Program-made: the position numbers and the translations under genes
Part shown: one piece after another, positions 1,786 through 47,977 of the stretch
How positions within the stretch are numbered: the stretch's first letter is position 1
Layout of the letters: every line of letters starts with the position of its first letter
Assembly (NCBI GenBank): GCA_041484665.1
Contig: JBGPIA010000001.1
Coordinates: forward strand, 736,001-800,000
Length of the DNA stretch: 64,000 bases
Source of the DNA: Candidatus Krumholzibacteriia bacterium
GTDB taxonomy: Bacteria > Krumholzibacteriota > Krumholzibacteriia > JAJRXK01
Direction of reading: 5' to 3'
The notes under the pieces: generated by a model
What the model saw: the letters and a program-made list of their open reading frames with translations, nothing else
Told to the model about the DNA's origin: nothing
Database searches by the model: none

Positions 1786-4700
1786 CTATTTCACGAGCAA
1801 CGCCTTCTTGACGTCGCGGAAATTGCTGGCCGCCAGCTCGTAGAGGTAGACTCCGCTGGCGACGAATCCTCCGCGATCGTCATGCCCATCCCACTCCACT
1901 GCGTGGTAACCCGCCGGCAGGTCCTGGGCGAGCAGGTTGCGCACGAGGCGCCCCGCCACATCGAACACGCGCAGCCGCACGAAGCCCTGCACCGGGGTCT
2001 CGAAGCGCAGCGTCGTGCGTGGGTTGAAGGGATTGGGGATGGCCGCGAGCAGGCGGAAGGCGCTGGGCGGCGTTACCACCGACGCGCGCGCCAGCTGCGC
2101 GATCTCAATTGCCAGCGTCTGACCGTCGACGCCGAGCGCTTGCACCTCGCGCGGCTGCAGGGCCCCGCCCAACTCGCCGAGCACCTCCAGCTGCAGGGTG
2201 AGCAGCGTGCCGTCGCCGCGCAGCGTGGCGCCCTGCCCGAGCACCGCCAGGTCGAGCACGACCGTCCCCGCTGCGGCGGACTGCCCGGCCGCGTCGGAGA
2301 CGAACACGGGAGCACCGGCAACGTCGAGCACGTCCGCGCGGCGGAAGCCCAGGTAACGCAGGCGCTGCCGGTCGTACTCCAGGGCGACGTGCAGCGCCTT
2401 GAGGGCGCCACCGTTGCCGCGGATCTGCAGTGGAAGGTCCACCTGCGCTGGCGCCCCAGACGCAGGCGTGCCGCCCAACGATCCGTTCGCGGGCTGCGCC
2501 CCGCCCGCAGGGGCGGTGAACGCCGGCTCGCCCAGGGCGATCCGCAACGGGCCGGAGTCGGGTTCCTGCGGCAGCACCGCCAGCGGCATCGCACCCAGCT
2601 TTGCCGGCGCCAAACCGAAATTCAGGGCGAAGACGACCAGGTCGCTGAAGTCGACCTTGCCGTCGGTCAACGGCAGTCCCGTGCCAGTGGCGTCGGAGGT
2701 GGGACCGATGTCGGCGCCGCCGAGGTAGGCGGCGTTCCCCCGCTGCAGTCCGTAGGTGAGGGACAGGACCGGGAGATCGTGGGCTCCGTCCACGCGTCCG
2801 TCGAAGGCGGGCACCGGCTGCCCGCCCGCGCCGAGGTCGCCCAAATCGCCCAGACGATAGTTGGTCGCACGCTTGCGTGGCGCGCTGGCCAGATCGGACA
2901 GATTCCCGGCCGCGTCGCGGCTGAGCGCGATCAGCGAGACGATCGTCCGCTGCGGCAGCGGCACCGTGTACGGCAAGGTGAGCGGCGCGTCGAGCTGCAG
3001 CTCGGTCCAGCCGTTGGCCGGAGCGCGCGCTTCGGTCAGGGTCGCAGGCCAGGCCGGGGCGGGCACCGCATCGTCGAAGTCCGGATATCCCGCATCGGCC
3101 GTGAGGCTCCAGGGACGGTAGAACAGTGTGAGCCCGGCAAAGTCGGCGGCGGGGGGCGTGATCCCCAGACGCACGCCCTGGTGAAGCGGCAGAAGCGTCA
3201 GCGCCGTCGGCGCGCCCGGCGGGGTCAGGTCGATGGCGCGCGCTGCGCCCACGGCCTGCGCAGAAAGCGACTGCGGCGGGTCGGCGACGTCCACCAGCCC
3301 CATCACGGTCAGCGGCAGCGCCGAGGCGCCCTCCGGCGCGCCCGGCTGGACCCGGAGCGTCACCGTCGCCAGCACTCCAAAGCCGTGCGCGCCCGGGGTG
3401 GCGCCGAGCAGGCTCTGGTCGATGCGGATGGTCCCAGGCGCGGACGTGTTGGCGGCGAAGAAGCTGGTCGCGCCGCCCGTCGTCTCCAGGAACGGCCCCT
3501 TGACCGCAGAGACCACGCTGAAGACCGCTGGGTCGTAGCCGATCTCGGCGCTCACCCCGCGCAGTGGATTGCCGCCGCCGAGATCGTCGTAGCGCAGGTC
3601 CAGGCTGGACTGCGCGGCGGCGGCGAGGGCGCCTGCGGCCGGGCTGAGGCTGAGCACGGGAGTGGGCGGCGGTGGCCCGAAGGTCGAGAAGCCCGTCGCG
3701 TAGCTCGCGGCCACCGCTAGGCCGTCGAGGGCGACGCGATAGATGCGCACCTGCCCTAGATCGCCGTCGAAGAAGTTGCCGTAGATGCCCGCGCCGCCCG
3801 AGGTGCCGCCGCCCAGCACGAGCTCGGAGACCTGGCTGCCCAAGCCCGTGGTGGCGCTACTGTAGCGCAGCGCGCCGTCCACGTAGGCACGTACGCCCGC
3901 TGCGTCGTAGGAGAGTGCGACGTGGTGGAACGTTCCCGCGGTCACCGGCGCGAGGGCGACCCAGCGAACTAGGCGCGCGCGCAGGGAGTCGTTCTGGACG
4001 GCGATCGCGCACCCCGGCCACGGACTCGCGTAGGACTGCACCCACTCCAACGCAATCTGGCGCGCGGCGAGATTGCTGCCAGCGGCGAGCCACAGCTCGA
4101 CGGTCGCCGTAGTGGGTGACTGGAGCGCGGCCAACCCCCCGGCCGAAAGCGTCGCGCGGTCGTCGATGCCGTCGAAGCGCAGCCGGTACGGATCGCCGCG
4201 CACGCCTTGGCCTCGCCAGCCGCTCGCGGCTCCCGGGGACGTAAACCCGGAGAGCCCCACCGCGCGGCCGGCGACAAGATCGACCCACGGCCCGGCGGCG
4301 CCGGGCACCGCGGGCGGCGTGGAGCCGTTGGCGCGATCGGCGCGCAGCTCGAACGCGAGGAGCGGCGGCGGCGAGAGCGTGAACCCGCCGGCCAGCACGC
4401 CGCTCTGGCCATTGGGGTTGGTAACCACCACGTCCCACGCACCCGGAGCTGCGCCCGTGAGGGGCAGATTGCAGGTAAGCTGCGTGGCACCGGCCACCGC
4501 CACGCTGGTCGCGACGATGTCGGGCTGGCCGGCGCGTCGCAGCCTCACGGTCGCGCCGGCCACGAACGCGTCGCCGGTGAGCTGGACGCCGGTGAGATTG
4601 CTCTCGTTGGTGGCCGCCGCGGGCAGGATCGTGGTGAGCAGCGGAGCGTTCGCGTAGAGCGCGGCGCTCTGGGCGAGGCGCACGGCGACCTGGCCCGCCG

Positions 4701-7700
4701 TCAGCGCGAAACCGTAGGCGCGCACCTCGCCGAGGGCCCCGTTGAACTCGTCGCTGTAGTGCCCAGCGCCGCCATAGGTGCCGCTGCCCAGCAGCAGCTC
4801 GCTGGCCTGACCGCCCAGATTCGCGGGCGTCGCGGTCAGCGTGCGCGCGCCATTGACGTAGGCGCACACCTGGCTGGCCGACTTCGTCACGGCCAGGTGC
4901 ACCCAGCGCTGGGGCGCCACGTTGGCGATCGATTGCCAGCTACCGTTGTAAACCTGCAGTTGCCCGTTCTGCAGCGCCACGCTCATGCCTGCAAACGGCG
5001 CGCCGTAGCTCGACAGCCACTCCAGCACGTACGAGCGCGTGAGCACGTCGGTGGGCGTCTTCAGCCACAGCTCCACGGTGGCTGCCGCGGGGTTCTGCAG
5101 TTGCGGGATGCTCCCGGCGGCGACGCGCGCCAGGTCGTCGACCCCGTCGAAGGCCAGCCGGTAGGGATCGCCCACCACTCCGCCGCCGTTCCAACCGCTG
5201 GCGGCGCCCGGGGTCGTGAAGCCCGAAAGCGCGGCGTTGTGCCCAGCAGCGAGGTCAACCCACGGCGATGCCGCGCCTGGCACCGCCGGCGCCGAGCTCC
5301 CGTTGGCCTGGGCCGCGCGCAGCTCCAGGGCCGCTGCGGGCGGCAGCGAGTGGTCGTAGACGAGCGCGGTGTCGCGCGCGCTCGCTCCCTGGCTGTCGGT
5401 GACGGTCAGGATGATCTCGAGATAGAGGTTTGCGCCCCCCGCAGTCCCCGGCACGATCGACGTCGTGGCGACGCCCGGCGGGTGGAGGTAGTTGGGGGTG
5501 GTACTGGCGCCGTTGTGCAGGTTGACCGTCCACATGTAGTGCAGCGCGCTCGGGGGATCCTCCACGTCGGTGGCGCTGGCGACGAGCGGCAGCGATGCCT
5601 GCGGATTGGTGTACTCACCGCCGTCGGCTGGCGCTGTGATGCTCGCTTGTGGGGGAAAGTTGCCCACCACCTGGATCGGGAAGGGCGCCGTGCCGAGCAA
5701 ACCGCTGCCGTCGGTCACCGTGAGAGTGGCGGTATAGCTGCCCGGATTCTGGTACACGTGCGCCGGGCTCGCCGTGGTCGAGGTTGCGCCGTCCCCGAAC
5801 GCCCACGCGTCGGTCAGGACGTCGCCGTCTGGATCGTAGGAGCTGTCGGTGAACTGCACCGTCAGCGGCGCGGACCCCGCGGCCGGCACTGCGGTGGCCG
5901 CAGCCACGGGAGGTACCTCGTTGAACGCCAGCCGTTGCAGGCGGGCGGTCACCGGCACGTCAAAATCCCAGGTCTTGGTGATGTACCCGACGCGCTGCAC
6001 GGGCGCGCCCACGGTCTGGGTTCCGGCGACGGTCCAGGGACTGGCATCGGCGGCGCGGTATTCGAACGAGTACGTGGAGCCCGTCTTCACCACGCGCAGG
6101 CTCAGCGTCGTCGCCGCACTCATAACGTTGAGCAGATTACTGGCGCCCGTGCGCTCCAGGCGCAGGTTGGTGCCGCGGTAGAAACCCCAGTAGAAAAGAT
6201 CGTAGGGGCCGAAGCCCACCATCAGACCGGAGTGGAACAGCTGCGCCGAGACGAAGCTGCTGAGCGTGACCCGCGTCTCCAGCGTCCAGTTCCCCGCGCC
6301 CATGTCGGTGCGGCGCAGCTGGGGCGCGCGGTCGATGGTGGGCGAGTGGTTGTAGGGGACCGACAGCGCGTTGGGAACCGCGAGGTCGAGGGGGAAGTGG
6401 GCCGGCGCGAAGGGCAGCGCCAGGCTCGGCCCCGGCAGCGGCGCGTACCATTCCCAAGCCTTGCTGGAGGGAATCACTGGCGCCGGCGCCGAGCGGGGGC
6501 TCACCTTCGGGGGCGCCTCGTTGTCCACCGCCTCGATCGTGTACGTGTAGGTGAGGCCATTGGCGATCGCCGAGACCGATCCGTCGTCGACGAACGAGTT
6601 CGCGACGACCGGAACCGGTGTGAGCTTCACCTCGGGCCCACCGAGCGCGCTCGTGCGGTAGACGTTGTAGCCGACCAGGTCGGACTCGGGGTTGTAGCCC
6701 CAGTTCAGCAGCACCTTGGCCTGCTGCGGAATCGCCCGCAGGCCGGTGGGCTGCACAGGCGCCACGCCGGCGCCGGTGGGTCCAGTGTAGTGGATGCGCA
6801 GGATCCGCTTGCTCGCCCACGAGCAATACATGAAGTCGCCACTCACCGGGTCGAGGCGGATCTCCACCGGATTGCCCAGATTGCTCCCGAAGTCCTGCAC
6901 GTCGACGACGTGGTCGCTGGCGTCGAGCACGGCCATGTTCAGCCAGCTCGATGGGTAGTCGCAGAAGAACAGCCGCTTGCGGTACTGGATGGGGTAGCCC
7001 GTTCCCTGGTAATAGGCGCCGCCGGCAGCGGCGTTGCCATAGATTCCGCCGATCGGCGCCGAGTCGGCGGTGAGGCCGTTGTGGGGCCATTCGATGCTTG
7101 GCGCGGTCAGCCCGGCGCCGCCGGGCGGGCACGCACCGCGGGGGGGAACGCCGGCGTACGGGTAGTCCGTCTGCTCGCCTGAGCCCTCGTTGCAGGGCCA
7201 GCCGAAGTTCTCGCCGCCCCTGCAGACGTTGATCTCCTCCCAGCGGTTCCAGCCCACGTCGCCGACGAACAGCGTGCCGGGGCGCGCGTCGGCGGGGTTG
7301 GTCGAGCCGCTGCCACGCCGGATGGTCATGCGGTATGGATTGCGCAGGCCACGGGCCCAGATGCGCGAGATGCTGCTGCGCGGATGGGCGGCGTCGTAGA
7401 AGGGATTGCTCGGGATGCCGTCGCCATTGGCGGGGTTCAGGCGCAGGATCTTGCCCGACAGGCTCCCCGTCCACTGCGAGCGATAGGCGCCGATGTCCTC
7501 GAGGGGATCGCTGCGCCCGGGCAGGAACTGATTGGGCTCGAGCCCGCCGGCGTCGGCGCGGTCGTAGTGAGCACCATCCCCGCAGGAGAACAGCAGCGTG
7601 CCGTCGTCGCCGAACAGCAGCGTTCCGGTGCTGTGCGAGTAGTATGCGGATGTGACGCCCAGCGGCCAGGTCTCTCCCACCAGCACGAGCCGGCTCGCCG

Positions 7701-8214
7701 GGTCGGCGATGTAGGGATTCGCGGTGCTCCGGGTATAGCGAACGATGCGCAAGAAGCCGAGCTGGTCCAGGTCCGGGGTGCCGGGATCGGTTTCGACGCT
7801 GTAGGCGAGGTAGAGGTAGCCGTTCGTGGCGTAATACGGGTCGAGCGCGATGCCCAGCATCCCGCGGTCCGCGTTGTCGAGCACCTCGGCCCCGAGGTCC
7901 AGGAATGGCATCGCGCGCCGGGTGTAGGTCGGGGGGCTGCCCCCAGCGGACTCGAGGATCTGCACCTGCCCGCGCTTCTCCGCCACGAAGATGCGTCCGT
8001 CGGGGGCGAAGGCGAGGCCCACGGGATCGACGAACGTGGCCGTTGGCGCGATGTCCATGGCCTGGAAGTTGTTTGGGAAGAGCTGGGCGCGCGCCGGCGC
8101 CGCGGGACCGAGGGCCAGCGCGGCGGTCGCGAGCAACCCCGCCATCGTCCGCCCGAGGGCGGCCCGGCCGGCCTTGCCGCACGGCCGGCGAGCATCACGA
8201 TGCGTGCGATCCAC
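1786..8214 (-). CDS. Secreted multidomain protein, 2142 aa: PQQ-dependent glucose/sorbosone dehydrogenase-family propeller, FN3, beta-sandwich, PKD, 2x LamG-like, IPT/TIG, cohesin-like, FN3-like, dockerin-like, cohesin-like, FlgD-Ig CTD
   Basis: GTG start at 8214 after GGAGGA; signal peptide ending ARA|QLF; PVGLAFAPDGRIFVAEK, SHSTGTLLFGDDG and GLRNPYR (GSDH family); WAFGDG (PKD); paired FDGVDD/FDGIDD LamG repeats; C-terminal PNPFNPRT..WDG..SGVY. Confidence 0.85.
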   Translation of the reverse strand: MDRTHRDARRPCGKAGRAALGRTMAGLLATAALALGPAAPARAQLFPNNFQAMDIAPTATFVDPVGLAFAPDGRIFVAEKRGQVQILESAGGSPPTYTRRAMPFLDLGAEVLDNADRGMLGIALDPYYATNGYLYLAYSVETDPGTPDLDQLGFLRIVRYTRSTANPYIADPASRLVLVGETWPLGVTSAYYSHSTGTLLFGDDGTLLFSCGDGAHYDRADAGGLEPNQFLPGRSDPLEDIGAYRSQWTGSLSGKILRLNPANGDGIPSNPFYDAAHPRSSISRIWARGLRNPYRMTIRRGSGSTNPADARPGTLFVGDVGWNRWEEINVCRGGENFGWPCNEGSGEQTDYPYAGVPPRGACPPGGAGLTAPSIEWPHNGLTADSAPIGGIYGNAAAGGAYYQGTGYPIQYRKRLFFCDYPSSWLNMAVLDASDHVVDVQDFGSNLGNPVEIRLDPVSGDFMYCSWASKRILRIHYTGPTGAGVAPVQPTGLRAIPQQAKVLLNWGYNPESDLVGYNVYRTSALGGPEVKLTPVPVVANSFVDDGSVSAIANGLTYTYTIEAVDNEAPPKVSPRSAPAPVIPSSKAWEWYAPLPGPSLALPFAPAHFPLDLAVPNALSVPYNHSPTIDRAPQLRRTDMGAGNWTLETRVTLSSFVSAQLFHSGLMVGFGPYDLFYWGFYRGTNLRLERTGASNLLNVMSAATTLSLRVVKTGSTYSFEYRAADASPWTVAGTQTVGAPVQRVGYITKTWDFDVPVTARLQRLAFNEVPPVAAATAVPAAGSAPLTVQFTDSSYDPDGDVLTDAWAFGDGATSTTASPAHVYQNPGSYTATLTVTDGSGLLGTAPFPIQVVGNFPPQASITAPADGGEYTNPQASLPLVASATDVEDPPSALHYMWTVNLHNGASTTPNYLHPPGVATTSIVPGTAGGANLYLEIILTVTDSQGASARDTALVYDHSLPPAAALELRAAQANGSSAPAVPGAASPWVDLAAGHNAALSGFTTPGAASGWNGGGVVGDPYRLAFDGVDDLARVAAGSIPQLQNPAAATVELWLKTPTDVLTRSYVLEWLSSYGAPFAGMSVALQNGQLQVYNGSWQSIANVAPQRWVHLAVTKSASQVCAYVNGARTLTATPANLGGQASELLLGSGTYGGAGHYSDEFNGALGEVRAYGFALTAGQVAVRLAQSAALYANAPLLTTILPAAATNESNLTGVQLTGDAFVAGATVRLRRAGQPDIVATSVAVAGATQLTCNLPLTGAAPGAWDVVVTNPNGQSGVLAGGFTLSPPPLLAFELRADRANGSTPPAVPGAAGPWVDLVAGRAVGLSGFTSPGAASGWRGQGVRGDPYRLRFDGIDDRATLSAGGLAALQSPTTATVELWLAAGSNLAARQIALEWVQSYASPWPGCAIAVQNDSLRARLVRWVALAPVTAGTFHHVALSYDAAGVRAYVDGALRYSSATTGLGSQVSELVLGGGTSGGAGIYGNFFDGDLGQVRIYRVALDGLAVAASYATGFSTFGPPPPTPVLSLSPAAGALAAAAQSSLDLRYDDLGGGNPLRGVSAEIGYDPAVFSVVSAVKGPFLETTGGATSFFAANTSAPGTIRIDQSLLGATPGAHGFGVLATVTLRVQPGAPEGASALPLTVMGLVDVADPPQSLSAQAVGAARAIDLTPPGAPTALTLLPLHQGVRLGITPPAADFAGLTLFYRPWSLTADAGYPDFDDAVPAPAWPATLTEARAPANGWTELQLDAPLTLPYTVPLPQRTIVSLIALSRDAAGNLSDLASAPRKRATNYRLGDLGDLGAGGQPVPAFDGRVDGAHDLPVLSLTYGLQRGNAAYLGGADIGPTSDATGTGLPLTDGKVDFSDLVVFALNFGLAPAKLGAMPLAVLPQEPDSGPLRIALGEPAFTAPAGGAQPANGSLGGTPASGAPAQVDLPLQIRGNGGALKALHVALEYDRQRLRYLGFRRADVLDVAGAPVFVSDAAGQSAAAGTVVLDLAVLGQGATLRGDGTLLTLQLEVLGELGGALQPREVQALGVDGQTLAIEIAQLARASVVTPPSAFRLLAAIPNPFNPRTTLRFETPVQGFVRLRVFDVAGRLVRNLLAQDLPAGYHAVEWDGHDDRGGFVASGVYLYELAASNFRDVKKALLVK
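3690..5335 (-). repeat. Internal duplication of a LamG-like domain (about 3690-4360 and 4660-5335) flanking an IPT/TIG domain
   Basis: ELRAAQANGSSAPAVPGAASPWVDL..SGFTTPGAASGW..GDPYRLAFDGVDD versus ELRADRANGSTPPAVPGAAGPWVDL..SGFTSPGAASGW..GDPYRLRFDGIDD. Confidence 0.85.
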
Positions 8215-8237
8215 GTTTCCTCCTGCGCCCAGCCGCG

Positions 8238-9146
8238 TCAGTCTACCCGGACGAGCTTGGCGGATGCGCGCCGTCCATCGGGCAGGGCCGCCACGGCGTA
8301 GTAGACGCCGCGTCCGACGAGCTGGCCCGCGGCATCGCGGCCATCCCACTGCACGACCCCCGGCTCCGCGCGCGCCGTGAAGGCGCGCACCCGGCGGCCA
8401 GCCACGTCGTGGATCACGATCAGCACCAAGTCTTGCTGGCCGCCTGCGGTGGCCAGGGGAGGACCTCCGCCCGGGGCGGCGCCGTTGACCGTGGCCGGTG
8501 CACCGGCCAAGGCGACCCCACCGAGGATCAGGAGCACGGGACCGCGCGACGGATTCGGCTCCGCGCGCAGGCGCAGCGCTGCCGGGCGCAGCGCCACAGG
8601 CGCATCGACCGTTCCGATGACGACCGTGGCCGTCCGCAGCGTGACGCCCGCGATGACGGCGCGGTCCACGTCGCGCAGAACGGCGTCGGTTAGCTGCACC
8701 GTGATCACTCCGTCGGCCAGGCCACGGAACGTCACCATGGCGAGCGTACCCGTAGCCGCGACGCTCGATCCGAAGCCGAGCACGCAGTCCGTGAGCACGT
8801 CGCGCCCCTGGGCGTCGCTCTCGAGGCTGAAGAACGTCGGCTGAGCAGCGCCGGAGAAGAGCGAGCCTTCCGCCGCAGAGACCAGTTCCAGCAGGTTGCG
8901 GTCGTACTGCAGGGTGAGGGCGTAGCACGATAGCCGCGACAGTCTGAGATCCGCCTCGATCGATAGGGTGAATTGCGTAGCGGGCGTCTGCCACATGTTG
9001 AACGGCTCGAAGTGGACGTCCTTGTTCTGGGCGTGCGATGCGGCTGCCGGCAGCGCAAGCGCCCCGGCCAGCAGTCCGATCCGCAGCGCATGCCGAACGC
9101 GCCCGCCGCCGCGTGCGAGCGCCGTTGGCTGATGGAGTGGACGCAT
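8238..9146 (-). CDS. Secreted cohesin-like domain protein with FlgD-Ig CTD
   Basis: ATG at 9146 after GAAGGAG; signal peptide SHA|QNK; LTLQYDRNLLELVSAAEGSLF...ATGTLAMVTF cohesin pattern; EPNPS..WDGRD..GVYY C-terminus. Confidence 0.75.
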   Translation of the reverse strand: MRPLHQPTALARGGGRVRHALRIGLLAGALALPAAASHAQNKDVHFEPFNMWQTPATQFTLSIEADLRLSRLSCYALTLQYDRNLLELVSAAEGSLFSGAAQPTFFSLESDAQGRDVLTDCVLGFGSSVAATGTLAMVTFRGLADGVITVQLTDAVLRDVDRAVIAGVTLRTATVVIGTVDAPVALRPAALRLRAEPNPSRGPVLLILGGVALAGAPATVNGAAPGGGPPLATAGGQQDLVLIVIHDVAGRRVRAFTARAEPGVVQWDGRDAAGQLVGRGVYYAVAALPDGRRASAKLVRVD

Positions 9147-9182
9147 CGAGCAACTGCTCCTTCCCATTGGGGACCGCGCCGG

Positions 9183-12176
9183 CTAGCGCACCAGGGCCAT
9201 GCGCCGCAGGGCCGTCCGCCCTGCCGCCTCGGCGCGGGCCACGTACACGCCGCTGGCGACCGCTCTGCCGAGCTCGTCGGTGCCGTCCCAGACCAGCGCG
9301 TGTACGCCGGCCTCGTGGTGACCGCGCAGCAGCGTCTTGATCCGGCGGCCCGCCAGGTCGTACACGGCCACGTCGACGTCCGAGGGCGCCGCCAGCGTCA
9401 GCTCGAGCGTAGTGCGGGGATTGAACGGGTTGGGGATGTTGGGCGACACGGTGATCGCCGCGCGCGACGGCGGCGGCCGATCGCCACCGCGCAGCGTGAG
9501 CTGCGCGGGCAGCGGCGCGCCGGCGGCGTCGCGCACGTCGATCGCCGCGGTCGCAGCTGCCAGGTCGAACCCAGCTGAGGAACTCAGGATCAGCGTCGCC
9601 GCCAGGCCGTCGCGGCCCAGCCGCGTCCCCGGGCCCAGCAGGGCGATGTCCGCCGCGAGCTCGCCGTCGCGCGCGTACGCCTGCGCGAACGGCCGGCCCG
9701 GACCCTCCGTCAGGGCCGGGCCCGGCACCAGCCCCGGCGTGGGGACGGCGCGCGGTCCCGCGGTCAGGCCCACGTGCAGCGCCTTCACCCGGCCGGCGGC
9801 ACCCTCGACCTCGATCGGGATGCGCAGCTCGCCGTCGGCACCGAGCTGCGGCGGGCCGAGCGTGACGTACACGGGGCTCTCCGCCGCGGCCGAGGCGCCC
9901 GCCGCGAGCTTCTCGACCGTGGTGGGCACCGTCTCCAACAGCGGTCCGCCTGGATCGCTCGTCCCGAACGCCAGCGCGAAGGTCACCAGATCGCCGAAGT
10001 CGATCGCGTCGTCGGTGAGCGGGACCCCGCGGCTGGTGCCGTTGTCGGTGGGACCGATGTCGCACTCGGGGTTGAAGCCCGGCTGTCCGTCGTGGGTCCC
10101 GTAGGCGAGGGAAAAGACCGGTAGGTCGTGCACCCCGTTGACCACTCCGTCGTAGGTCTGTGGCACGCCGACTTCGCCCAAGTCGCCCAGCAGGTATGTG
10201 GTTGCCCGCGCGCGGGCAGCGGCGGTGCCGAAGGCGGGGATGCCGGCCGCGCTGTAGGTGTACGCCGCGTAGTAGGCCACGGCACGCGTGGCATTGGTGA
10301 AGCTCGCGTCGACGAAGCTGGTCCCCGTGCCGTCGTAGACCTGGACCCAGCCGTTCGCCAGCGCGTGATCCAACTGGACCTGGTCGGCGGGCGGCGGCAC
10401 CGCGGCCGGGGGATCGCCGAATTCGGGATAGTCGTTGTAGAGCTTGCGCAGCACCTTCACGCCCGCGACCGGCGGTCCGGGAATCCACGAGAGCACGACC
10501 CGATTGTGGCCGGGGACGGCCTGCAGCGCCGCCACGTTGGCCGGCGCCTGGGCCACCGGGATGCTGGCGCTGCCGCTGGTCATGTCCACCGGCGCGCTCT
10601 GCCCGTAACTCGACCAGTAGCTGTAGATCTTGTCGCCGCGGCTTTGGGCGTTGGGGTAACCACGGTCCTTGGGGTCGGGGCCGCTGTGGTTCTCGTCGCG
10701 CAGGAACTCCACGTACTCCCGCGAGGTGGTCTGGTAGCGCAGCATGGCGGTGACCCGCATCGGCCCCGCGATGCCCGCGGGCACCGGGATCGCGTACGTC
10801 ACGTCATCCCAGTGCGGGAGCTGGCCACCCGGCAACGGTACATAGTCGGCGCCGACGGGGGCGGTCTGCGCGTCGGGGACCATGCCGCGCGGCGGGATGC
10901 GGTTGTCCTTGACGATGCGGTTGTTCAGCACGAGGTGGAAGGTCGGCCCCTGCCCCTGCACGCCATGGCGCACTTCGTAGACCCGCAGCTGCGCATCGGC
11001 CACCAGCGTCGCGGTCGCACCGTCGTAGGCGCCCGACTCGAAGAACGGGACGCCGAAGACGTCCTTGGCCACGACGCTGAGCCACATGCGCCGCCCCTCG
11101 GGATAGCCGGTCGGGAGCTTGTGGCCCGTGTTGTTGGTCACGCGCACGGTGACTGCCACGCTGTCGCCAGCCACGGCCTGCGGCGGGACCGTGATCCCCA
11201 ACGTCGCGGCTTGCGTCTGCAGCATGGAGAGCGCCTGGTTGATCGTGTAGGTGTACGCGGCGGTGCGGTTGAGCAGCTGCCCATAGAGTCCGCGGAGGAT
11301 CGCCGGCACGAAGGTGTTCGCCCCGGTGAAGTCATGGCGCGAGATGTCGGACCGGAACGGATTGAAGGAGTTGCAGGCGTAGCCAGCCACCTCCGGCATG
11401 TGGCAGGTTTGGCACTGCTCCCCCTCGGCGGGAAACGCGCTCTGGAGCCACTCGCTGTAGGTCAGCTGCTCGGGGAACTGGAGCCCCGTGGGCTGGCCGT
11501 TGGCATCGAGCAGCTCCACCAGCGGGTTGCGCAGGTCGTGGCAGGCGGCGCAGAACTCGCTGCTCATGTGGTACGGCGAGGACGCGAAGGCGTGGGGGGC
11601 GAACGCGTCGGCGTACGGTCCACGGCGCGGCGGCTGCGCCGCCGGCGTGCCGTCGTCGACGTAGTACTGGCCGTTCTGCTTGAAGGGCGTGCCGCCAGGC
11701 CCCTCGTACGCCCGGTGGCAGAAGGCGCACGAGATCCCTTCGAAGTCGTTGTCCGGCTCGTCGGGATATCCGGTGAGCGCGCTGCCGTTGGGGACGCTGC
11801 TGCGCCCGCCCAGCCAGCCGGCCGGCGAATGGCAGCGGATGCAGAACTCGCCCACGCCGGCGTGGTCCTGGTTGGCCACGTCCAGCGCCGCCCAGAACAG
11901 CGGGTCGCGGGCTGAGTTGGCCATCATCGTGCCGGCCCACGTGTCGAACGGCTCGTAGTCGAGCCCCGCGATGTAGCCGCCGTGGCACGTCTTGCAGTCG
12001 CGCGGGAGCATGCCCCGCACGGCATTGCTGGGATCGGTGAACTCCAGCGGCCAGTTGACCAGCGTCCCCGGTTGGGTGCCCGGCAGCACGATCTGTGCGT
12101 GAGCTGGCGCACCACCCATCGCCAGCCGGGCGGTCAGCGCGAGCGCAAACGCGAGCCTAACCTGCAGGTGTTGCAT
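9183..12176 (-). CDS. Secreted pentaheme cytochrome c fused to FN3-like, dockerin-like, cohesin-like and FlgD-Ig CTD domains
   Basis: Signal peptide AHA|QIV; five CxxCH motifs (CKTCH, CIRCH, CAFCH, CAACH, CQTCH); GHKLPTGYPEGRR; C-terminal PNPFNPRT..WDGTD..SGVY. Confidence 0.85.
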   Translation of the reverse strand: MQHLQVRLAFALALTARLAMGGAPAHAQIVLPGTQPGTLVNWPLEFTDPSNAVRGMLPRDCKTCHGGYIAGLDYEPFDTWAGTMMANSARDPLFWAALDVANQDHAGVGEFCIRCHSPAGWLGGRSSVPNGSALTGYPDEPDNDFEGISCAFCHRAYEGPGGTPFKQNGQYYVDDGTPAAQPPRRGPYADAFAPHAFASSPYHMSSEFCAACHDLRNPLVELLDANGQPTGLQFPEQLTYSEWLQSAFPAEGEQCQTCHMPEVAGYACNSFNPFRSDISRHDFTGANTFVPAILRGLYGQLLNRTAAYTYTINQALSMLQTQAATLGITVPPQAVAGDSVAVTVRVTNNTGHKLPTGYPEGRRMWLSVVAKDVFGVPFFESGAYDGATATLVADAQLRVYEVRHGVQGQGPTFHLVLNNRIVKDNRIPPRGMVPDAQTAPVGADYVPLPGGQLPHWDDVTYAIPVPAGIAGPMRVTAMLRYQTTSREYVEFLRDENHSGPDPKDRGYPNAQSRGDKIYSYWSSYGQSAPVDMTSGSASIPVAQAPANVAALQAVPGHNRVVLSWIPGPPVAGVKVLRKLYNDYPEFGDPPAAVPPPADQVQLDHALANGWVQVYDGTGTSFVDASFTNATRAVAYYAAYTYSAAGIPAFGTAAARARATTYLLGDLGEVGVPQTYDGVVNGVHDLPVFSLAYGTHDGQPGFNPECDIGPTDNGTSRGVPLTDDAIDFGDLVTFALAFGTSDPGGPLLETVPTTVEKLAAGASAAAESPVYVTLGPPQLGADGELRIPIEVEGAAGRVKALHVGLTAGPRAVPTPGLVPGPALTEGPGRPFAQAYARDGELAADIALLGPGTRLGRDGLAATLILSSSAGFDLAAATAAIDVRDAAGAPLPAQLTLRGGDRPPPSRAAITVSPNIPNPFNPRTTLELTLAAPSDVDVAVYDLAGRRIKTLLRGHHEAGVHALVWDGTDELGRAVASGVYVARAEAAGRTALRRMALVR

Positions 12177-12353: not shown

Positions 12354-13106
12354 CTAGCCGCGCTTCAAGGATACCACAGCGCGGCCGGTCGCGGGCGCGC
12401 CAGCCAGTGGTTTCGCAGGCGCGCCGCCAGACGCCGAGACCGCGCGCTGCGCCTCACCGCGGTGGGGGCCCAGGTTGGCCAGCAGTCCCAGGTTGTTCAG
12501 CAACTCCTGGATGCCGTCGTCGGTAGCGGCGTAGTAGCCCCGGATGCGTCCTTCCTGGTCCACGAGCACGAAGCGCTCCCCGTGGACGATGTCGAAGAAT
12601 CCGGTGTCCTCCACCGCGGTCCGCTGCATCGCGATCTTGAAGCCGTCGACAATCGTCGACTGCAGGACGTCCAGCGGCCCGGTCAGGAAGGTCCACATGT
12701 CGTGCCGTGCGTGGTAGCGGTCGGCGTAGGCGCGCAGCACCAGCGGCGTGTCGCGCTGTGGATCCACGCTGAACGAGACCAGGTGGGCGGCGTTGCCGAC
12801 GTTGCGCAGGTGGTACTGGAGGTCCGACATGCGCTGGCTGAGCCGCGGGCAGGCTTCCGCGCAGCTCGTGAAGATGAAATCGGCCACCCACACGTGGCCC
12901 CGCAGGTCAGCCAACCCGAACGGCTTGCCGTCCTGGTCTTGGAGCTGGAAGGCGGGCAGCTGTCCGTAGACGGGCGGCGGAGGCGGCAACTGGCGGCCCA
13001 CCGAGCGGGCGATGGGCAGGGCGAACGCCAGCCCTATGAGCCCCACCCAGAAGAAGCGGTTGCCCGTGAGCCGGAAGGCGAGGCGTTGCACCGTGGTCTT
13101 GAGCAT
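12354..13106 (-). CDS. SCO1/SenC family copper chaperone
   Basis: FIFTSCAEACP (CxxxCP), VDPQRDTP and the conserved His in IVHGERF; N-terminal membrane anchor. Confidence 0.9.
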   Translation of the reverse strand: MLKTTVQRLAFRLTGNRFFWVGLIGLAFALPIARSVGRQLPPPPPVYGQLPAFQLQDQDGKPFGLADLRGHVWVADFIFTSCAEACPRLSQRMSDLQYHLRNVGNAAHLVSFSVDPQRDTPLVLRAYADRYHARHDMWTFLTGPLDVLQSTIVDGFKIAMQRTAVEDTGFFDIVHGERFVLVDQEGRIRGYYAATDDGIQELLNNLGLLANLGPHRGEAQRAVSASGGAPAKPLAGAPATGRAVVSLKRG

Positions 13107-13168
13107 GGGCGTCATCCTCCTCGCGCCGATCCCGGGGGCGCCCGCCACGGGCGACCGCGGTCGGGCCG

Positions 13169-14116
13169 CTATCCCTTTGACTGGCCCTGCGCCGGGGGCG
13201 CCGTCCAGGGCGGCTGGTTGCGCAGCATCGCCTTCAGCTGGAGAGCCTCGGACGTCCCGCGCAGGCGCGCGAGCGAGCGCACGTAGTACGCCAGCGCCCA
13301 CAGCTGCTCGTCAGGAAGCGAGCCCTCCCAGGTCGGCATGGCCGTGCCGCCGATTCCCGCCGCGATCGTCCGGTACAGGTCGGCCAGGTCCGTGCCCGAG
13401 CGGATGCGGTGGAAGGTGAAGTCGGGCGGATAGATCTTTACGCCGTAGTCGCTGTCCTTCAGCTCGGGGGTGTAGATCTTCGCGTCGAGATCGGTGCGCC
13501 CGACTCCGGTGAGCTCCACGCCCGCCGTGTAGATCTCCGGATAGGTGGCGTAGGCCGGGTGGCAGGACAGGCACTGTGCCAGGCCGTGGTAGAGCTTCTT
13601 GCCCAGCGCCACGGCTGCTGCTTCGCGCGCGGGCCCGAAGGGATCCTCCGGAGCCACGATCGGCTTGCCCTTCTCCTCCTGCGGATCGGTCCAGCGCGGT
13701 GAGAACGTCTTGATGTACTGGACCACCGCCTCCAGCCGCCGGTCGGAGATGTCCCACGGCAGCATGGCCGTGCCGTCGAGACCGCGGCGGACGATGCGTT
13801 TGAAATCGTCGTCATTGGGCAGGGAGCCCGACTCCACGGCCACGAACTTGTAGGTGCCCTGCCGGAAGTCCCGCGGCGGAGGCCGCAGCCCTTTGGACGC
13901 CGGGCCCTTGCCGTCGCCATTCACGCCGTGGCAGGCGCGGCAGTACTGCAGGTAGGTGTCGCGGCCGAGGTTCAGCGTCGCCGCCTCGACCTTCACGCCG
14001 CCCAGGGTCACGGGCTCCTTGAAGTGCCGCTGGACGCAGCCGCCCAGCAGCGACGCGGCGGTGAGGGCCAGTGCCGCGCCGGCGGCCCCGAGCAGTGGCG
14101 TGCGCGAGGAGTGCAT
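13169..14116 (-). CDS. Di-heme cytochrome c lipoprotein
   Basis: Lipobox-like LLGGC; CRACH and CLSCH; two GTAM axial-Met motifs; PPPRDF. Confidence 0.85.
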   Translation of the reverse strand: MHSSRTPLLGAAGAALALTAASLLGGCVQRHFKEPVTLGGVKVEAATLNLGRDTYLQYCRACHGVNGDGKGPASKGLRPPPRDFRQGTYKFVAVESGSLPNDDDFKRIVRRGLDGTAMLPWDISDRRLEAVVQYIKTFSPRWTDPQEEKGKPIVAPEDPFGPAREAAAVALGKKLYHGLAQCLSCHPAYATYPEIYTAGVELTGVGRTDLDAKIYTPELKDSDYGVKIYPPDFTFHRIRSGTDLADLYRTIAAGIGGTAMPTWEGSLPDEQLWALAYYVRSLARLRGTSEALQLKAMLRNQPPWTAPPAQGQSKG

Positions 14117-14191
14117 CACGGAGACTGTCCTCTCCCCCCATGGCGGCGCAGTGCTCGGCCGCGACCTGCGGCCGGCCAGCGTGCCACGCGC

Positions 14192-14779
14192 CTAGAGCAC
14201 GAAGATCGCCACGAACATGATGATCCACACCAGGTCCACGAAGTGCCAGTACATCGAAACGGGCTGCACGGGAAGGCGCCCTGTGCCCGCACCGCCGGCC
14301 GCACCGGCGCGCGCCGCCAGCCAGGCCAGCGCCGCGAGCCCGCCCAGCACGTGCAGCGCGTGCAGAACCGTCAGCGCGTAGAAGACCGAGCCGAACACGC
14401 CCTGCGGCACGATCCCGCTGCGCAGCGTGCGCATCCACAGCAGCACCTGCAGCGCTACGAAGCAGGCACCCAGGCCGATCGCCGCCCATGCGCCGCGCGC
14501 CAGAGCGCCGCGCTTTCCGGCGCTCTGCTGCCGCGCGCCGTGCGCCAGCGCGAAGCTGCTCGCGCCCAGCACGAAGGTGTTGGCCAATGCCTGCGCGAGC
14601 GGCAGTGGCCCCGTCCCGGGCGGCGGCCAGACCGGCTGCTGGACGCGCAGCACGACGTAGGCCAAGAACAGGGTGGCAAAGAGCATCAGCCACGACGCCA
14701 GGGCGATCGTCATCCCCACGTAGGAGGTCGCCCGGTCGTCGTCCCGCGCTGGCGCAGGCATGATCGCCGTCATGTGCAT
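14192..14779 (-). CDS. ctaE: Cytochrome c oxidase subunit III
   Basis: FYALTVLHALHV and YWHFVDLVW motifs; five transmembrane segments. Confidence 0.9.
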   Translation of the reverse strand: MHMTAIMPAPARDDDRATSYVGMTIALASWLMLFATLFLAYVVLRVQQPVWPPPGTGPLPLAQALANTFVLGASSFALAHGARQQSAGKRGALARGAWAAIGLGACFVALQVLLWMRTLRSGIVPQGVFGSVFYALTVLHALHVLGGLAALAWLAARAGAAGGAGTGRLPVQPVSMYWHFVDLVWIIMFVAIFVL

Positions 14780-14797
14780 GGGCAGGCCGCTCCAGGA

Positions 14798-16576
14798 TCA
14801 GCTGTGGGCAGGCTGGCTCACCAGCTCCGTGCGCGCGATACGTTCGGCCGCCGGCGGATCGTCCGGCAGGCGTTCGGCCTGGCCGATCCAGTCCTTCGCC
14901 GTTTGCCGCGGATTGTTGAACTCGTGGGGGCCATGGTAGATGACGGGGATCTCCTTGAAGTTGTAATGGGGCACGGGCGTGGGCGTGGACCACTCCAGCG
15001 TCCCGACCTCCCACGGGTTGTCCGTGGCCTTCGCCCCCGCGAAGAAGCTCTTGAAGAAGTTGATGACGAAGAGCAGCTGCACCGCCCCCAGGATCAGAGC
15101 CGCGACGGTGATGAACTTGTTGAGCGGCTCGAGGTGTTGCAGATACGTGTAGACGGAGTGGTTGTAGATGCGCCGGTGCATCCCGGCCCACCCCCCGAAC
15201 AGCATCCCGCAGAACACGAAGTTGATGGGGAAGAAGGATAGCCAGAAGTGCAGCTTGCCGAGCCGCTCGTCCATCATCCGGCCGAACATCTTGGGGAACC
15301 AGTAGTAGATCGCCGCGAAGGAGCCCAGCAGCACCGCGGCTGCCATCGTCAGGTGGAAGTGCCCCACCACGAAGTAGGTATCGTGCAGGTAGAGATCGGT
15401 GCTGATGGAGGCGAGGTAGAGCCCCGTCAGGCCGCCCAGCCCGAACACGAACACCACACCGAGCGAGAACAGCATGGGCACGGTCAGGCGCAGCTTCCCC
15501 TTCCAGATGGTGTGGCACCAGTTGAGGAAGAGCAGCTCGGCGGGCACGCTGATGATCATGGTCAGCAGCATGAAGCTCTGCCCGAGCAATGGGCTCAGGC
15601 CCGTCGAGAACATGTGGTGCCCGTACACGACGGCCGACATGACCGTGATGGCGCCCATGGCGAACACGCTGAGCTTGTAGCCGTAGGCTGGCTTGCGCGC
15701 GAAGAACGCCAGCAGGTCGCCGATCACTCCCCAGGCCGGCAGGATGAGGATGTAGACCTCGGGGTGGCCGAAGATCCAGAACAGGTGCTGGAACAGGACG
15801 GGATCGCCGCCACCGTTGGTCACTGCGGCGCCGGCCGTGAAGAACTGCGTCCCGAACACGCGATCGAAGAACAGCAGCATCATCGCAGCGCCCAGCACGG
15901 GCACGAACAGCGCGTTCAGCACGGCCGTGTACCACATGCCCCACACGGTGAGCGGCATGTCCATGTAGCCCATGCCCGGCGCCCGCAGCCGGATCACGGT
16001 GGTAACGTAGTTCACGGCCCCCATGATCGTGCCCGTTCCGGTGAGGAACACCCCCACCACCCAGAACGTCTGCCCCAGCCCAGGCTGGCCGATCTTGGTA
16101 CTCAACGTGGGATAAGCGGTCCAGCCGCCGGCCGCGGCTCCCTGCGGCACGAACAGCGACACGAACATGACAACGCCCGCCGACAGCGCAAACCAGAACG
16201 AGAGCATGTTCAGCGTCGGGAAGGCCATGTCGCGGGCGCCGATCATGAGTGGGATGCAGAAGTTCCCGAAGCAGCCGATCAGGATCGGCGTGATAGCGAA
16301 GAAGATCATGATCGTGCCGTGCATGGTGAACAGGCTGGCGTAGGCGTCGGGAGGCACCGCTCCGTCGGTGTCCGGGTAGAAGATCTTCCCCACCAGCGGG
16401 ATGGCGTGGCCGGGGTGCGCCACGTTCCAGCGGATGAACATCGCCATCGTCCCGCCCACCAGCAGCCAGAAGAGGCCGAAGAAGAGGAACTGCTTGGCGA
16501 TGACTTTATGGTCCCGGGAGAAGACGTACTTTGCGACGAACGTCGTCGGAGCTGGATGGATGTGATCGTCGCTCAT
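14798..16576 (-). CDS. ctaD: Cytochrome c oxidase subunit I, A1 type
   Basis: DHKVI, TMHGT, GWTAYP, FGHPEVY, GHHMF and VVGHFHL motifs; ATG at 16576 overlaps the ctaC stop. Confidence 0.97.
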   Translation of the reverse strand: MSDDHIHPAPTTFVAKYVFSRDHKVIAKQFLFFGLFWLLVGGTMAMFIRWNVAHPGHAIPLVGKIFYPDTDGAVPPDAYASLFTMHGTIMIFFAITPILIGCFGNFCIPLMIGARDMAFPTLNMLSFWFALSAGVVMFVSLFVPQGAAAGGWTAYPTLSTKIGQPGLGQTFWVVGVFLTGTGTIMGAVNYVTTVIRLRAPGMGYMDMPLTVWGMWYTAVLNALFVPVLGAAMMLLFFDRVFGTQFFTAGAAVTNGGGDPVLFQHLFWIFGHPEVYILILPAWGVIGDLLAFFARKPAYGYKLSVFAMGAITVMSAVVYGHHMFSTGLSPLLGQSFMLLTMIISVPAELLFLNWCHTIWKGKLRLTVPMLFSLGVVFVFGLGGLTGLYLASISTDLYLHDTYFVVGHFHLTMAAAVLLGSFAAIYYWFPKMFGRMMDERLGKLHFWLSFFPINFVFCGMLFGGWAGMHRRIYNHSVYTYLQHLEPLNKFITVAALILGAVQLLFVINFFKSFFAGAKATDNPWEVGTLEWSTPTPVPHYNFKEIPVIYHGPHEFNNPRQTAKDWIGQAERLPDDPPAAERIARTELVSQPAHS

Positions 16577-17430
16577 CGCGTCTTCTCCCATTCCCAGCCC
16601 CAGAGGGCCTCGGCGTCCGTCGGATCGAAGCTCGCGACGGCGAAGCGGGCCGCCTCGGCGTACCAGCGCTCGAAGTCCTCCTGGGCCTCGATGGTCATCG
16701 TCCCCCTCATCTTGTAGTGCTCCAGCCCGCACATCTCGGCGCACACGATCTCGTAGCTGCCGGTCTTCACCGGCGTGAAGGTGTAGCGCGTCACGCGGCC
16801 GGGGTTGGCGTCTTGCTTGGTGCGGACGTTGGGCAAGAAGAAGCTGTGGATCACGTCCTTCGCCTTGAGCTGGACCAATACGCGGCGCCCCACCGGTAGG
16901 TGGAGGTCATTGAGCGTGATGATGTCGTCGCCCGTGTTGAACTGCCCGTCGGCGCCGGCGTAACGGATGTTCCATGCCCACTGCTGCGGCATGATCTCCA
17001 CGCGGAAGACTTCACTGCCATCCGTGAAATTCCAGAAGGCCTGCTTGAGGTCGTAGTAGCTGTGCACCAGCAGCGTCCCGTCCACCACAAAGAAGATCGC
17101 CGCCGAGATGGCGGCCGCGATGAGCAGGTCGCGGACGTGGCCGCCTTGGTGGTGGTAGTTCACCTGGTGCCTGCTCCCGGTGCGATGGGCGAGCATGGGC
17201 CAGAAGAGCAGGAAGCACAGGATCAGGAACAGCACAGCCAACATGATCGTGACCGTGTAGAAGAGCGAGTCGACGCGGTGCCCGTCCAGGGAGATGTCCG
17301 GCGCCGGCTTCATCCAATGGAACGGATCGCGCGCCCCGGTGCCATCGGCGAGCGCCAGCGCGGGCAGGGCGATGATGGGCAGCAGGACCAGGACACCGGC
17401 AAGGTACGCGCGCGCGCGGCCTGTCCTCAT
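16573..17430 (-). CDS. ctaC: Cytochrome c oxidase subunit II (CuA)
   Basis: QQWAW, DVIHSF and CAEMCGLEHYKM CuA motifs; no fused cytochrome c. Confidence 0.95.
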   Translation of the reverse strand: MRTGRARAYLAGVLVLLPIIALPALALADGTGARDPFHWMKPAPDISLDGHRVDSLFYTVTIMLAVLFLILCFLLFWPMLAHRTGSRHQVNYHHQGGHVRDLLIAAAISAAIFFVVDGTLLVHSYYDLKQAFWNFTDGSEVFRVEIMPQQWAWNIRYAGADGQFNTGDDIITLNDLHLPVGRRVLVQLKAKDVIHSFFLPNVRTKQDANPGRVTRYTFTPVKTGSYEIVCAEMCGLEHYKMRGTMTIEAQEDFERWYAEAARFAVASFDPTDAEALWGWEWEKTR

Positions 17431-17753
17431 GGGTGCCTTTCGTCGCGAGCAGCGGCGGAGAGCCCGGTGGGATAGACGAGACGGCCCGCAGCCACCGCCA
17501 CGGGGAGCCCGTCCTCGCTGCGCCTGGTCCGAGCGCGGGTGCGCCGGCGGATCATCAGCACGGCGCCGCCGAACACCCCGAACGGCACGCCGAGGAAGCT
17601 CATGACCACGGGCAGAGTGGTGCGCGCCTTCTGGTCCGACTGGATACACGCCGGACAGGCCAGCGCCAGGCCGGGGCAAAGCAGCAGGGTCAGCAGGCAG
17701 ACGAATAGGGCCGCGCGGCTGCGCGTCGCCACAGAGCATCTCGATGCCGGCAA
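17427..17753 (-). CDS. Small membrane protein with a CxxC motif at the predicted mature N-terminus
   Basis: Signal-like helix ending ALA|CPAC, then one TM helix; stop overlaps the ctaC start (ATGA); start uncertain (TTG 17753 or GTG 17732). Confidence 0.6.
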   Translation of the reverse strand: MPASRCSVATRSRAALFVCLLTLLLCPGLALACPACIQSDQKARTTLPVVMSFLGVPFGVFGGAVLMIRRRTRARTRRSEDGLPVAVAAGRLVYPTGLSAAARDERHP

Positions 17754-22005: not shown

Positions 22006-22009
22006 CGCC

Positions 22010-47768: not shown

Positions 47769-47977
47769 GCACATCCTCCTGGGAGTGGTCGTGGCCGGGA
47801 GTCTGTGGGCCAGAGCACCCGGCGGCGATGGCGGCGGCCGCGAGAGACCGCAAGCGGACGGCACGGGGCAACGCAACCTGCGCGCGCGGGCGACTCTACG
47901 GCGCAAGGGTGGGGACATCCAACGAGAAGCTGCGGCCGCGCCCCAGGGCCAGCGCAGAGCGGGGAGCCGGCGGTGGC

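Follow-up and report, generated by a model that had tools for sequence, protein, structure and literature searches.

A candidate cohesin–dockerin redox locus in Krumholzibacteriota: a GSDH-family propeller and a pentaheme cytochrome on a widespread FN3–dockerin–cohesin tail

Can a secreted sugar-oxidizing enzyme be held to a multiheme cytochrome by the modules that are otherwise known from cellulosomes? This question is raised by three adjacent genes, here called A, B and C, in a stretch of 64,000 nt (the window) from Candidatus Krumholzibacteriia bacterium (GCA_041484665.1, contig JBGPIA010000001.1, positions 736,001–800,000; the genome is labeled G000 below). The original prediction described three tightly spaced, co-oriented genes for a five-CxxCH cytochrome, a protein made of a cohesin-like domain plus a C-terminal sorting domain, and a GSDH-family propeller with LamG and PKD modules. 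This description was confirmed: all three are minus-strand genes, separated by 36 and 23 bp, five CxxCH motifs were counted in A, and Pfam searches of C found GSDH (E 9e-27), two LamG stretches, PKD and one cohesin above the cut-off. Gene C starts with GTG behind a strong AGGAGG, and the database proteins P0048 and P0161 are likewise 2142 amino acids (aa) long. A 2900-aa open reading frame (ORF) was rejected as a longer gene C, as the same frame is merely open upstream in GC-rich DNA.

Four cohesin-like and two dockerin-like domains had also been predicted, and all six were borne out. The cohesins are that of B, the one behind the dockerin of A (coh2 type), and two in C, one before the FN3 module (coh1 type, B-like) and one behind the dockerin (coh2 type); A and C carry one dockerin each, 52% identical. 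The dockerins and B were identified by profiles, C coh1 by Pfam, A coh2 by fold and C coh2 by homology, the C-termini of A and C being homologous over ~450 residues with 35% identity. A profile built from 26 B-like domains matched type II cohesins first in the PDB (3L8Q_A, E 3.8e-9; 4U3S_A), while the Pfam score of the B domain itself (18 bits) was below the cut-off. A profile of 48 dockerin-like domains matched only dockerin-bearing cellulosome chains (4U3S_B, E 7.6e-7; 4WI0_B, 5K39_B, 2Y3N_B, 2B59_B, 3KCP_A and 5G5D_B), the best of which were type II X-dockerins; none of the 48 was matched by the Pfam dockerin families. Thus, both halves of one solved complex (4U3S) were among the top matches. 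Furthermore, the AlphaFold model of the A tail (predicted local distance difference test, pLDDT, 86; predicted template modeling score, pTM, 0.87) comprised FN3, the pair of dockerin helices and a cohesin. Compared with known structures, the modeled A coh2 had cohesins as its top 18 matches (Z 8.4–11, types I and II tying), structural matches placed an FN3 fold before each dockerin, and the duplicated loop-helix of the dockerin appeared as two helices in the A model, with invariant Asp residues. By fold and profile, the domains of A, B and C are cohesins and dockerins of a type II-like kind, for which Ca2+-dependent binding between chains is predicted. A Pfam cohesin search of G000 (5.45 Mb, 93.65% complete) gave 3 matches, this FN3–dockerin occurred only in A and C, one further ORF had a classical dockerin motif, and we found no multi-cohesin scaffoldin with many dockerin-bearing glycoside hydrolases, the combination that would define a cellulosome.

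The cytochrome domain of A was modeled with a pLDDT of 95 and has the c552/MccSep fold. It matched the pentaheme c552 5ZE8 (Foldseek E 1e-16; Z 25.5, root-mean-square deviation 2.6, 338 residues aligned) and, by sequence, MccSep (9WT8), whose absence from the Foldseek matches listed for the A model is not evidence of a different fold. In MccSep, according to the accessible part of the preprint, four bis-His hemes accompany a His/Cys heme beside Sec325 (bioRxiv 10.1101/2025.11.18.688581). In the A family, His195, His281 and His352 are invariant, and His414 is found in 80 of 84 rows. The Sec325 position is occupied by Tyr358 in 83 of 84 rows, the Cys239 position (weakly aligned; residue 237 in A) by Glu in 75 and Gln in 9, and Glu360 and Arg362 are present in all 84. 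Against NF040886, A scored 29.8 bits (cut-off 250). Since neither Sec nor Cys stands at 325 and the Cys239 ligand is missing, A is not an MccSep. The alignment suggests that A probably has an open heme site, so that A may catalyze the terminal step besides relaying electrons. The heme relay of the original prediction is therefore doubtful, because the c552/MccSep fold may be catalytic. Overall, the locus is neither a cellulosome nor an MccSep system, but a non-cellulosomal cohesin–dockerin system. The pentaheme domain was found in 117 of 201 genomes of the phylum of the window, Krumholzibacteriota, in 77 of 201 of the Eisenbacteria-labeled phylum, and in many other phyla. The commonest cytochrome form in these phyla (L020, L063, L092 and many others) is ~900 aa long with a sixth CxxCH and has a weak N-terminal match to GEGP diheme proteins.

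For the propeller of C, the PF07995 score was 94.7 bits (cut-off 25). C His194, Asp213, Arg291, Asn292 and Glu327 align to His144, Asp163, Arg228, Asn229 and Glu253 of soluble glucose dehydrogenase (sGDH, 1C9U), which we take to be the catalytic His and the residues that bind pyrroloquinoline quinone (PQQ) and Ca in the middle blades. The His, Arg and Asn were invariant in 37 of 37 rows of the propeller subfamily, whose node had a support of 92 in a tree made with a quick method. The alignments end at sGDH residue 296, and the last blade of the family shows P-V-D/E; the C-terminal PQQ-binding arginines of sGDH are presumably Arg406 and Arg408. A profile search of the PDB placed aldose dehydrogenases (2ISM, 3A9G, 1C9U) above the non-enzymatic HHIP, and C scored far below the TIGR03606 cut-off. 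Propellers of the subfamily usually carry lectin-like modules (PA14, LegB, F5/8). A search for pqqC gave no match, but neither did its positive control, which makes it uninformative on absence; a single PqqD-family match is not proof of PQQ synthesis. C is thus a predicted sugar dehydrogenase, and its use of PQQ is likewise a prediction. At another locus (L139, 5981–13300), a C-type propeller is accompanied by PA14 domains and, by eye, by classical dockerin–cohesin pairs of another type; this gene adjoins a cluster of decaheme, hexaheme and cytochrome b genes on the other strand.

The coupling of dehydrogenase and cytochrome that had been proposed received independent support from fusions. When the 80 best pentaheme loci in genome contigs were examined for neighbors, none had the tail, 5 had a C-type propeller with PKD fused before the cytochrome, and 2 had such a propeller as the preceding gene. 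These propellers were 40–45% identical to C, compared with 27–31% for the other propellers of G000. An intersection, made by hand, of propeller and cytochrome matches in 201 genomes of the Eisenbacteria-labeled phylum showed that 14 of the 110 propeller matches share an open frame with a cytochrome; they belong to 11 of 57 propeller-bearing genomes, and such frames were confirmed at 9 loci fetched. In addition, two metagenome loci (L177 and L179) carry the propeller fused to another pentaheme, more distant but of the same superfamily. A FastTree tree of 104 cytochrome domains placed the trio, fused and adjacent copies on three separate branches, with A grouping with Gemmatimonadota-labeled stand-alone copies, apart from the fused clade and the adjacent pair. 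These sequence comparisons suggest a repeated propeller–cytochrome association, a link that is recurrent, not obligate. One 2985-aa open frame (L154, 4554–13511) holds the propeller–pentaheme fusion duplicated in tandem.

The complete trio was seen three times in the same order, namely in the window, in a genome of the same family (G016) and in L169, so that synteny, too, agrees with the original prediction. Identities to the window in G016 and L169 were 54 and 54% for A, 44 and 34% for B, and 44 and 47% for C. With three instances only, the trio was rejected as a phylum-wide arrangement.

All three proteins end in FlgD_ig, with B scoring below the cut-off, and TIGR04183 was over the cut-off for A only. 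The signal peptide predicted for each protein was seen by eye only, as a hydrophobic stretch followed by AxA|Q; the predicted C-terminal domain of the FlgD-Ig/type IX secretion system (T9SS)-like kind is seen in A and C and, less firmly, in B. Because 204 ORFs of G000 have a sorting tail (at least 150 by Pfam), such a tail alone is ordinary there. In G000, 8 matches to the PorV family also exceed the cut-off and one ORF is SprA-like (a weak SprA_N match), and A, B and C are likely exported via a type IX-like system, as judged from these sequence features.

The FN3–dockerin–cohesin tail extends far beyond this locus. It matched 116 of the 201 Krumholzibacteriota genomes, with 1–8 copies each, and 3 of the 4 Eisenbacteria-labeled genomes tried. 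At 50% identity the tail is on 628 protein clusters; 141 of the best 150 carry coh2, and these 150 include 2 A-like (one a fragment) and 3 C-like clusters (one being that of the window itself). Cargo was scanned in 31 of the 150 proteins and in 20 loci, where 39 of the 41 cargo regions were used after two short, truncated ones had been set aside. It was beta-helix, FG-GAP, LamG, Ig, HYR, Kelch, GH5 or unassigned, and redox cargo appeared in G016 only. At 26 tail loci, chosen by score and copy number and not at random, tail genes usually numbered two or three, a B-like small gene for a cohesin plus sorting tail was present in 22, mostly abutting a tail gene, and 13 had a cohesin gene without a sorting tail of the B type. 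Given the B-like genes and the varied cargo, what is conserved is a docking cluster, redox cargo being a load specific to one lineage. Within G000, a generic tail was rejected, as FN3–dockerin is confined to A and C although 204 ORFs have a sorting tail. A cassette that is a generic tail on unrelated secreted proteins, with no conserved trio, had been named as the case that would speak against the original prediction: across other genomes the tail is indeed generic, but in G000 it is not, and the trio is conserved. When metagenomes were scanned with the LamG region specific to C, none of the 211 candidate stretches proved to be a relative; a second metagenome scan used P0034 as the query.

Two further forms of these modules were observed. 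P0003 (2234 aa) combines FG-GAP repeats with four tandem FN3–dockerin–cohesin units, a scaffoldin-like form of the tail. The 13 tail-less cohesin ORFs examined all end in an S/T-W-G-x-x-K-like motif; these are cohesin-only or double-cohesin genes at L024, L025, L033, L035, L038–L041, L123, L125, L126, L128 and L130. This end is possibly a second sorting or anchoring signal, and a regular expression found a similar end in 31 ORFs of G000.

Which cohesin does the dockerin bind? Simple mutual information over 183 tails, not corrected for kinship, gave dockerin V731 and coh2 A799 as the top covarying pair (z 7.2); it is mostly Met/Gly across tails and Val/Ala in both A and C. In the 125 tails with an upstream cohesin, FN3–dockerin pairs reached z 6.3–6.5 and dockerin–coh2 5.4, but coh1–dockerin only 4.3. 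The linker between dockerin and cohesin has 13–51 residues (median 21), and a pTM of 0.87 across this low-confidence linker implies that the model would fix coh2 against FN3–dockerin. Model and covariation suggest that each dockerin probably pairs with the coh2 right behind it, in cis or head-to-tail between chains. Since A and C share the same covarying Val/Ala pair, head-to-tail pairing of A with C is possible, and the constant presence of B at tail loci argues for some contact in trans. Of the docking of A and C as originally proposed, the cohesin and dockerin nature of the modules is supported by folds and profiles, and the contact between A and C is a candidate; a bridge through B is not supported, the likelier partner of each dockerin being the coh2-type cohesin that follows it.

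The reading that we favor, and to which we give somewhat less than an even chance, is that the cell exports A, B and C, which join one another via the tail, that C oxidizes a sugar, and that electrons pass to A. The three proteins would be joined on the cell surface by the phylum-wide FN3–dockerin–cohesin tail, each dockerin binding a coh2-type cohesin, and the coh1 domains of B and C would supply another kind of cohesin, at which the assembly could branch or be anchored. With PQQ taken up from the environment, the propeller would oxidize a sugar held by the PKD and LamG modules of C, and the electrons would pass to the five hemes of A. There, four bis-His hemes would carry them to the heme with the open Tyr/Glu-Gln site, and from this heme they would go to an acceptor outside the cell or on towards the adjacent oxidase cluster. 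More tentatively, Krumholzibacteriota and Eisenbacteria may chain secreted proteins head-to-tail via an undescribed tail without a scaffoldin, here joining a PQQ sugar dehydrogenase to a catalytic pentaheme in what would be the first natural cohesin–dockerin redox complex.

Several observations weigh against the docked dehydrogenase–cytochrome pair. As the last blade does not align, the PQQ site was compared for the middle blades only, which is half of the site, and a PDB search with the single sequence ranked HHIP first. The linker may allow the dockerin to be capped by its own cohesin, and the covariation signal is one pair with kinship not removed. Furthermore, 96 of the 110 Eisenbacteria-labeled propeller matches are unfused, and co-occurrence of propeller and cytochrome in these genomes is at chance (24 observed against ~22 expected, 57 x 77 / 201). 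An A-type cytochrome was found at 1 of 36 metagenome loci of the propeller subfamily, many of them on short contigs, and at none of the 8 other propeller loci of the phylum of the window; five of these eight have other multiheme genes as neighbors, and in four of the five, all from one genus, the neighbor is a decaheme cluster. Among the pentaheme loci examined, the tail was found only in G000 and G016.

These points can be accommodated in other ways. If the tail were a self-closed structural unit, A and C would be undocked cargos in a generic secretion cluster that may nevertheless exchange electrons. The pTM of the single three-domain chain, the rank of dockerin–coh2 above coh1–dockerin, and a tail present on so many clusters, nearly always with coh2 and with freely varying cargo, are all in keeping with this, but the free B-like cohesin at 22 of 26 loci needs a dockerin partner, tail genes tend to come in twos and threes, P0003 has four tails in tandem, and single-chain models cannot separate cis from head-to-tail contacts. 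We therefore regard self-closure as rather unlikely. It is a little harder to credit, and in our view unlikely, that A acts alone as a heme enzyme within the c552/MccSep superfamily and that the C propeller is a non-catalytic or differently cofactored HHIP-like binding domain, any complex serving adhesion or display. That the cytochrome is widespread without propeller or tail, that the conserved Tyr358, Glu360 and Arg362 suggest an active site in A, and that HHIP ranks first with the single sequence while propellers usually bear lectin-like modules would all fit, as would the lack of a pqqC match, given with its uninformative control. The invariant His, Arg and Asn of the sGDH site, the profile search with aldose dehydrogenases above HHIP, and propeller fusions to two different pentaheme subfamilies speak for a catalytic pair instead.

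The neighborhood of the trio suggests one more explanation, in which the pair works not outside the cell but in the periplasm or outer membrane and feeds sugar electrons into the adjacent cytochrome c oxidase. In the window the trio is immediately preceded, on its own strand, by an oxidase cluster, as it is in L169, and in G016 a heme o synthase homologue lies ~1 kb upstream. Yet all three proteins have export-type tails, no coxI match was found within 20 kb upstream of the trio in G016, and the synteny may merely reflect kinship; we consider this explanation improbable. The coordinates of the features are collected in Table 1.

Table 1. Genes, domains and the upstream cluster of the locus, in window coordinates
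Feature	Coordinates	Strand	Description and basis
Gene A	9183..12176	-	997 aa; pentaheme cytochrome, FN3, type II-like dockerin, cohesin, FlgD-Ig/T9SS-type tail
Gene B	8238..9146	-	302 aa; single coh1-type cohesin and sorting tail
Gene C	1786..8214	-	2142 aa; GSDH-family propeller, FN3-like/PKD/2xLamG/IPT-like modules, coh1, FN3, dockerin, coh2, sorting tail
A five-CxxCH domain and Ig domain	10542..12095	-	CxxCH count, alignment, 5ZE8 structural match
A FN3 module	10212..10550	-	Before the dockerin, the position of the X module in X-dockerins; FN3 structural matches, Z ~8
A type II-like dockerin	9951..10211	-	Gly-Pro-Thr insertion in second loop
A cohesin, coh2 type	9477..9884	-	Behind the dockerin; structural matches and covariation V731–A799
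C propeller, GSDH family	6781..8082	-	sGDH-site residues aligned
C cohesin, coh1 type, B-like	3235..3672	-	Before FN3; Pfam 30.7 bits, cut-off 24.1
C FN3 and type II-like dockerin	2605..3231	-	Homology to A
C cohesin, coh2 type	2095..2562	-	Behind the dockerin; homologous to A coh2
Cytochrome c oxidase cluster (coxII, coxI, coxIII, diheme cytochrome c, SCO)	12354..17739	-	Co-oriented, 177 bp upstream of A

Scans for promoters and terminators gave no more matches than chance would (0 against 0.5 expected and 3 against 3.8). The window is present in sediment metagenomes: of 24 runs listed, 12 contain at least half of its words, and 2 of these may be its source; no RNA run was among the 24. Elsewhere in the window, an eight-CxxCH protein (46167–48413, minus strand) weakly matches the hydrazine dehydrogenase family (E 3e-20, well short of the cut-off). 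On the plus strand (20017–24241) lies a 662-aa ORF whose C-terminal part is a heme o synthase; the next gene encodes an FdhF/YdeP-family molybdoprotein. A large multiheme cluster with a 42-CxxCH protein lies elsewhere in G000 (G000:C2:704650–737574); in G016, homologues lie 14–19 kb upstream of the trio, and L153 has a 42-heme ORF close to a propeller.

Cohesin–dockerin pairs outside cellulosomes are known. The present locus bears on their purpose and on the extracellular acceptor of GSDH-family propellers, since one lineage loads a docking cluster with a dehydrogenase–cytochrome pair that other lineages fuse. It further bears on catalysis by the widespread Tyr-type c552/MccSep-like cytochromes and shows that over half of the sampled genomes in one phylum have, within a conserved cluster, a dockerin family undetected by Pfam. 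If the proposed pair is real, it would be a bacterial counterpart of the fungal dehydrogenase–cytochrome enzymes. The system is small and testable, with domains of 90–520 residues and natural fusions as controls, and an orthogonal docking pair with a self-wired quinohemoprotein would be of interest for enzyme electrodes and designer cellulosomes. A literature search over titles and the starts of abstracts, with a full-text search that is thin on subscription journals, found no report of cohesin–dockerin clusters in Krumholzibacteriota or Eisenbacteria and no dockerin-linked dehydrogenase–cytochrome pair, and the literature naming these phyla that it returned mentioned neither cohesins nor dockerins. 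PMC4454575 contains none of the words cohesin, dockerin and cellulosome, and the accessible part of a genomic cellulosome survey does not name these phyla (PMC11557425). Cellulosome production in Latescibacteria, for which one article cites Farag et al. 2017 (PMC7273686), may anticipate part of the cohesin–dockerin observation.

Among known systems, the docking modules are closest to the type II cohesin/X-dockerin pairs of Acetivibrio and Clostridium cellulosomes (4U3S, 4WI0, 5K39, 2B59), to which they are alike in the profile homology of both modules, in the Ig-like module before the dockerin and in the cohesin fold. In contrast to those pairs, FN3 here replaces the X module, the second dockerin loop has an insertion, a cohesin follows directly behind each dockerin, an export-type tail is present, and the locus has neither a multi-cohesin scaffoldin nor cellulases. 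For Candidatus Stygibacter (Cloacimonadota), a cellulosome-like complex of cohesin and dockerin proteins with a T9SS-type C-terminal domain has been proposed from genomes only, as far as the accessible text goes (PMC8542988). Both cases thus concern such tailed proteins of uncultured bacteria inferred from genomes; there, however, a tandem-cohesin scaffoldin is described with hydrolases and peptidases, whereas here dockerin–cohesin tails sit on each cargo and the cargo is redox. The non-cellulosomal cohesin and dockerin proteins of anaerobic methanotrophic (ANME) archaea, with ABC-transporter binding proteins as common cargo, are alike in having docking modules without cellulolysis in organisms rich in multiheme cytochromes, but the portion of that article consulted describes no dehydrogenase–cytochrome pair (PMC9012536).

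The redox partners have relatives of their own. A shares five hemes, a C-terminal Ig domain and a GH-x-x-P-x-G loop with c552 of Thermochromatium tepidum (5ZE8) and the MccSep/ExtKL polysulfide reductase (9WT8), and differs from MccSep in its Tyr at Sec325, in the Glu/Gln at the weakly aligned Cys239 ligand, and in its fusion to docking and export tails. C belongs to the same GSDH family as the soluble PQQ glucose/aldose dehydrogenases (1C9U, 2ISM, 3A9G, 2G8S) and keeps positions 144/163/228/229/253; it is distant from them by its TIGR03606 score, its C-terminal part is not alignable, and it has a long accessory array. The fungal enzymes CcSDH (AA12 + AA8) and cellobiose dehydrogenase (CDH), the former of the PQQ type, join a dehydrogenase to a cytochrome according to the sections available (PMC4133262). 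A secreted six-bladed PQQ-type dehydrogenase, a cytochrome and a carbohydrate-binding module are common to both sides of this comparison, whereas the fungal enzymes, as described there, have one b-type heme in one chain, and the present system has five c-type hemes in a separate chain or fusion, another propeller family and a predicted function. By analogy, the locus would work like CcSDH and CDH and dock like a type II cellulosome pair.

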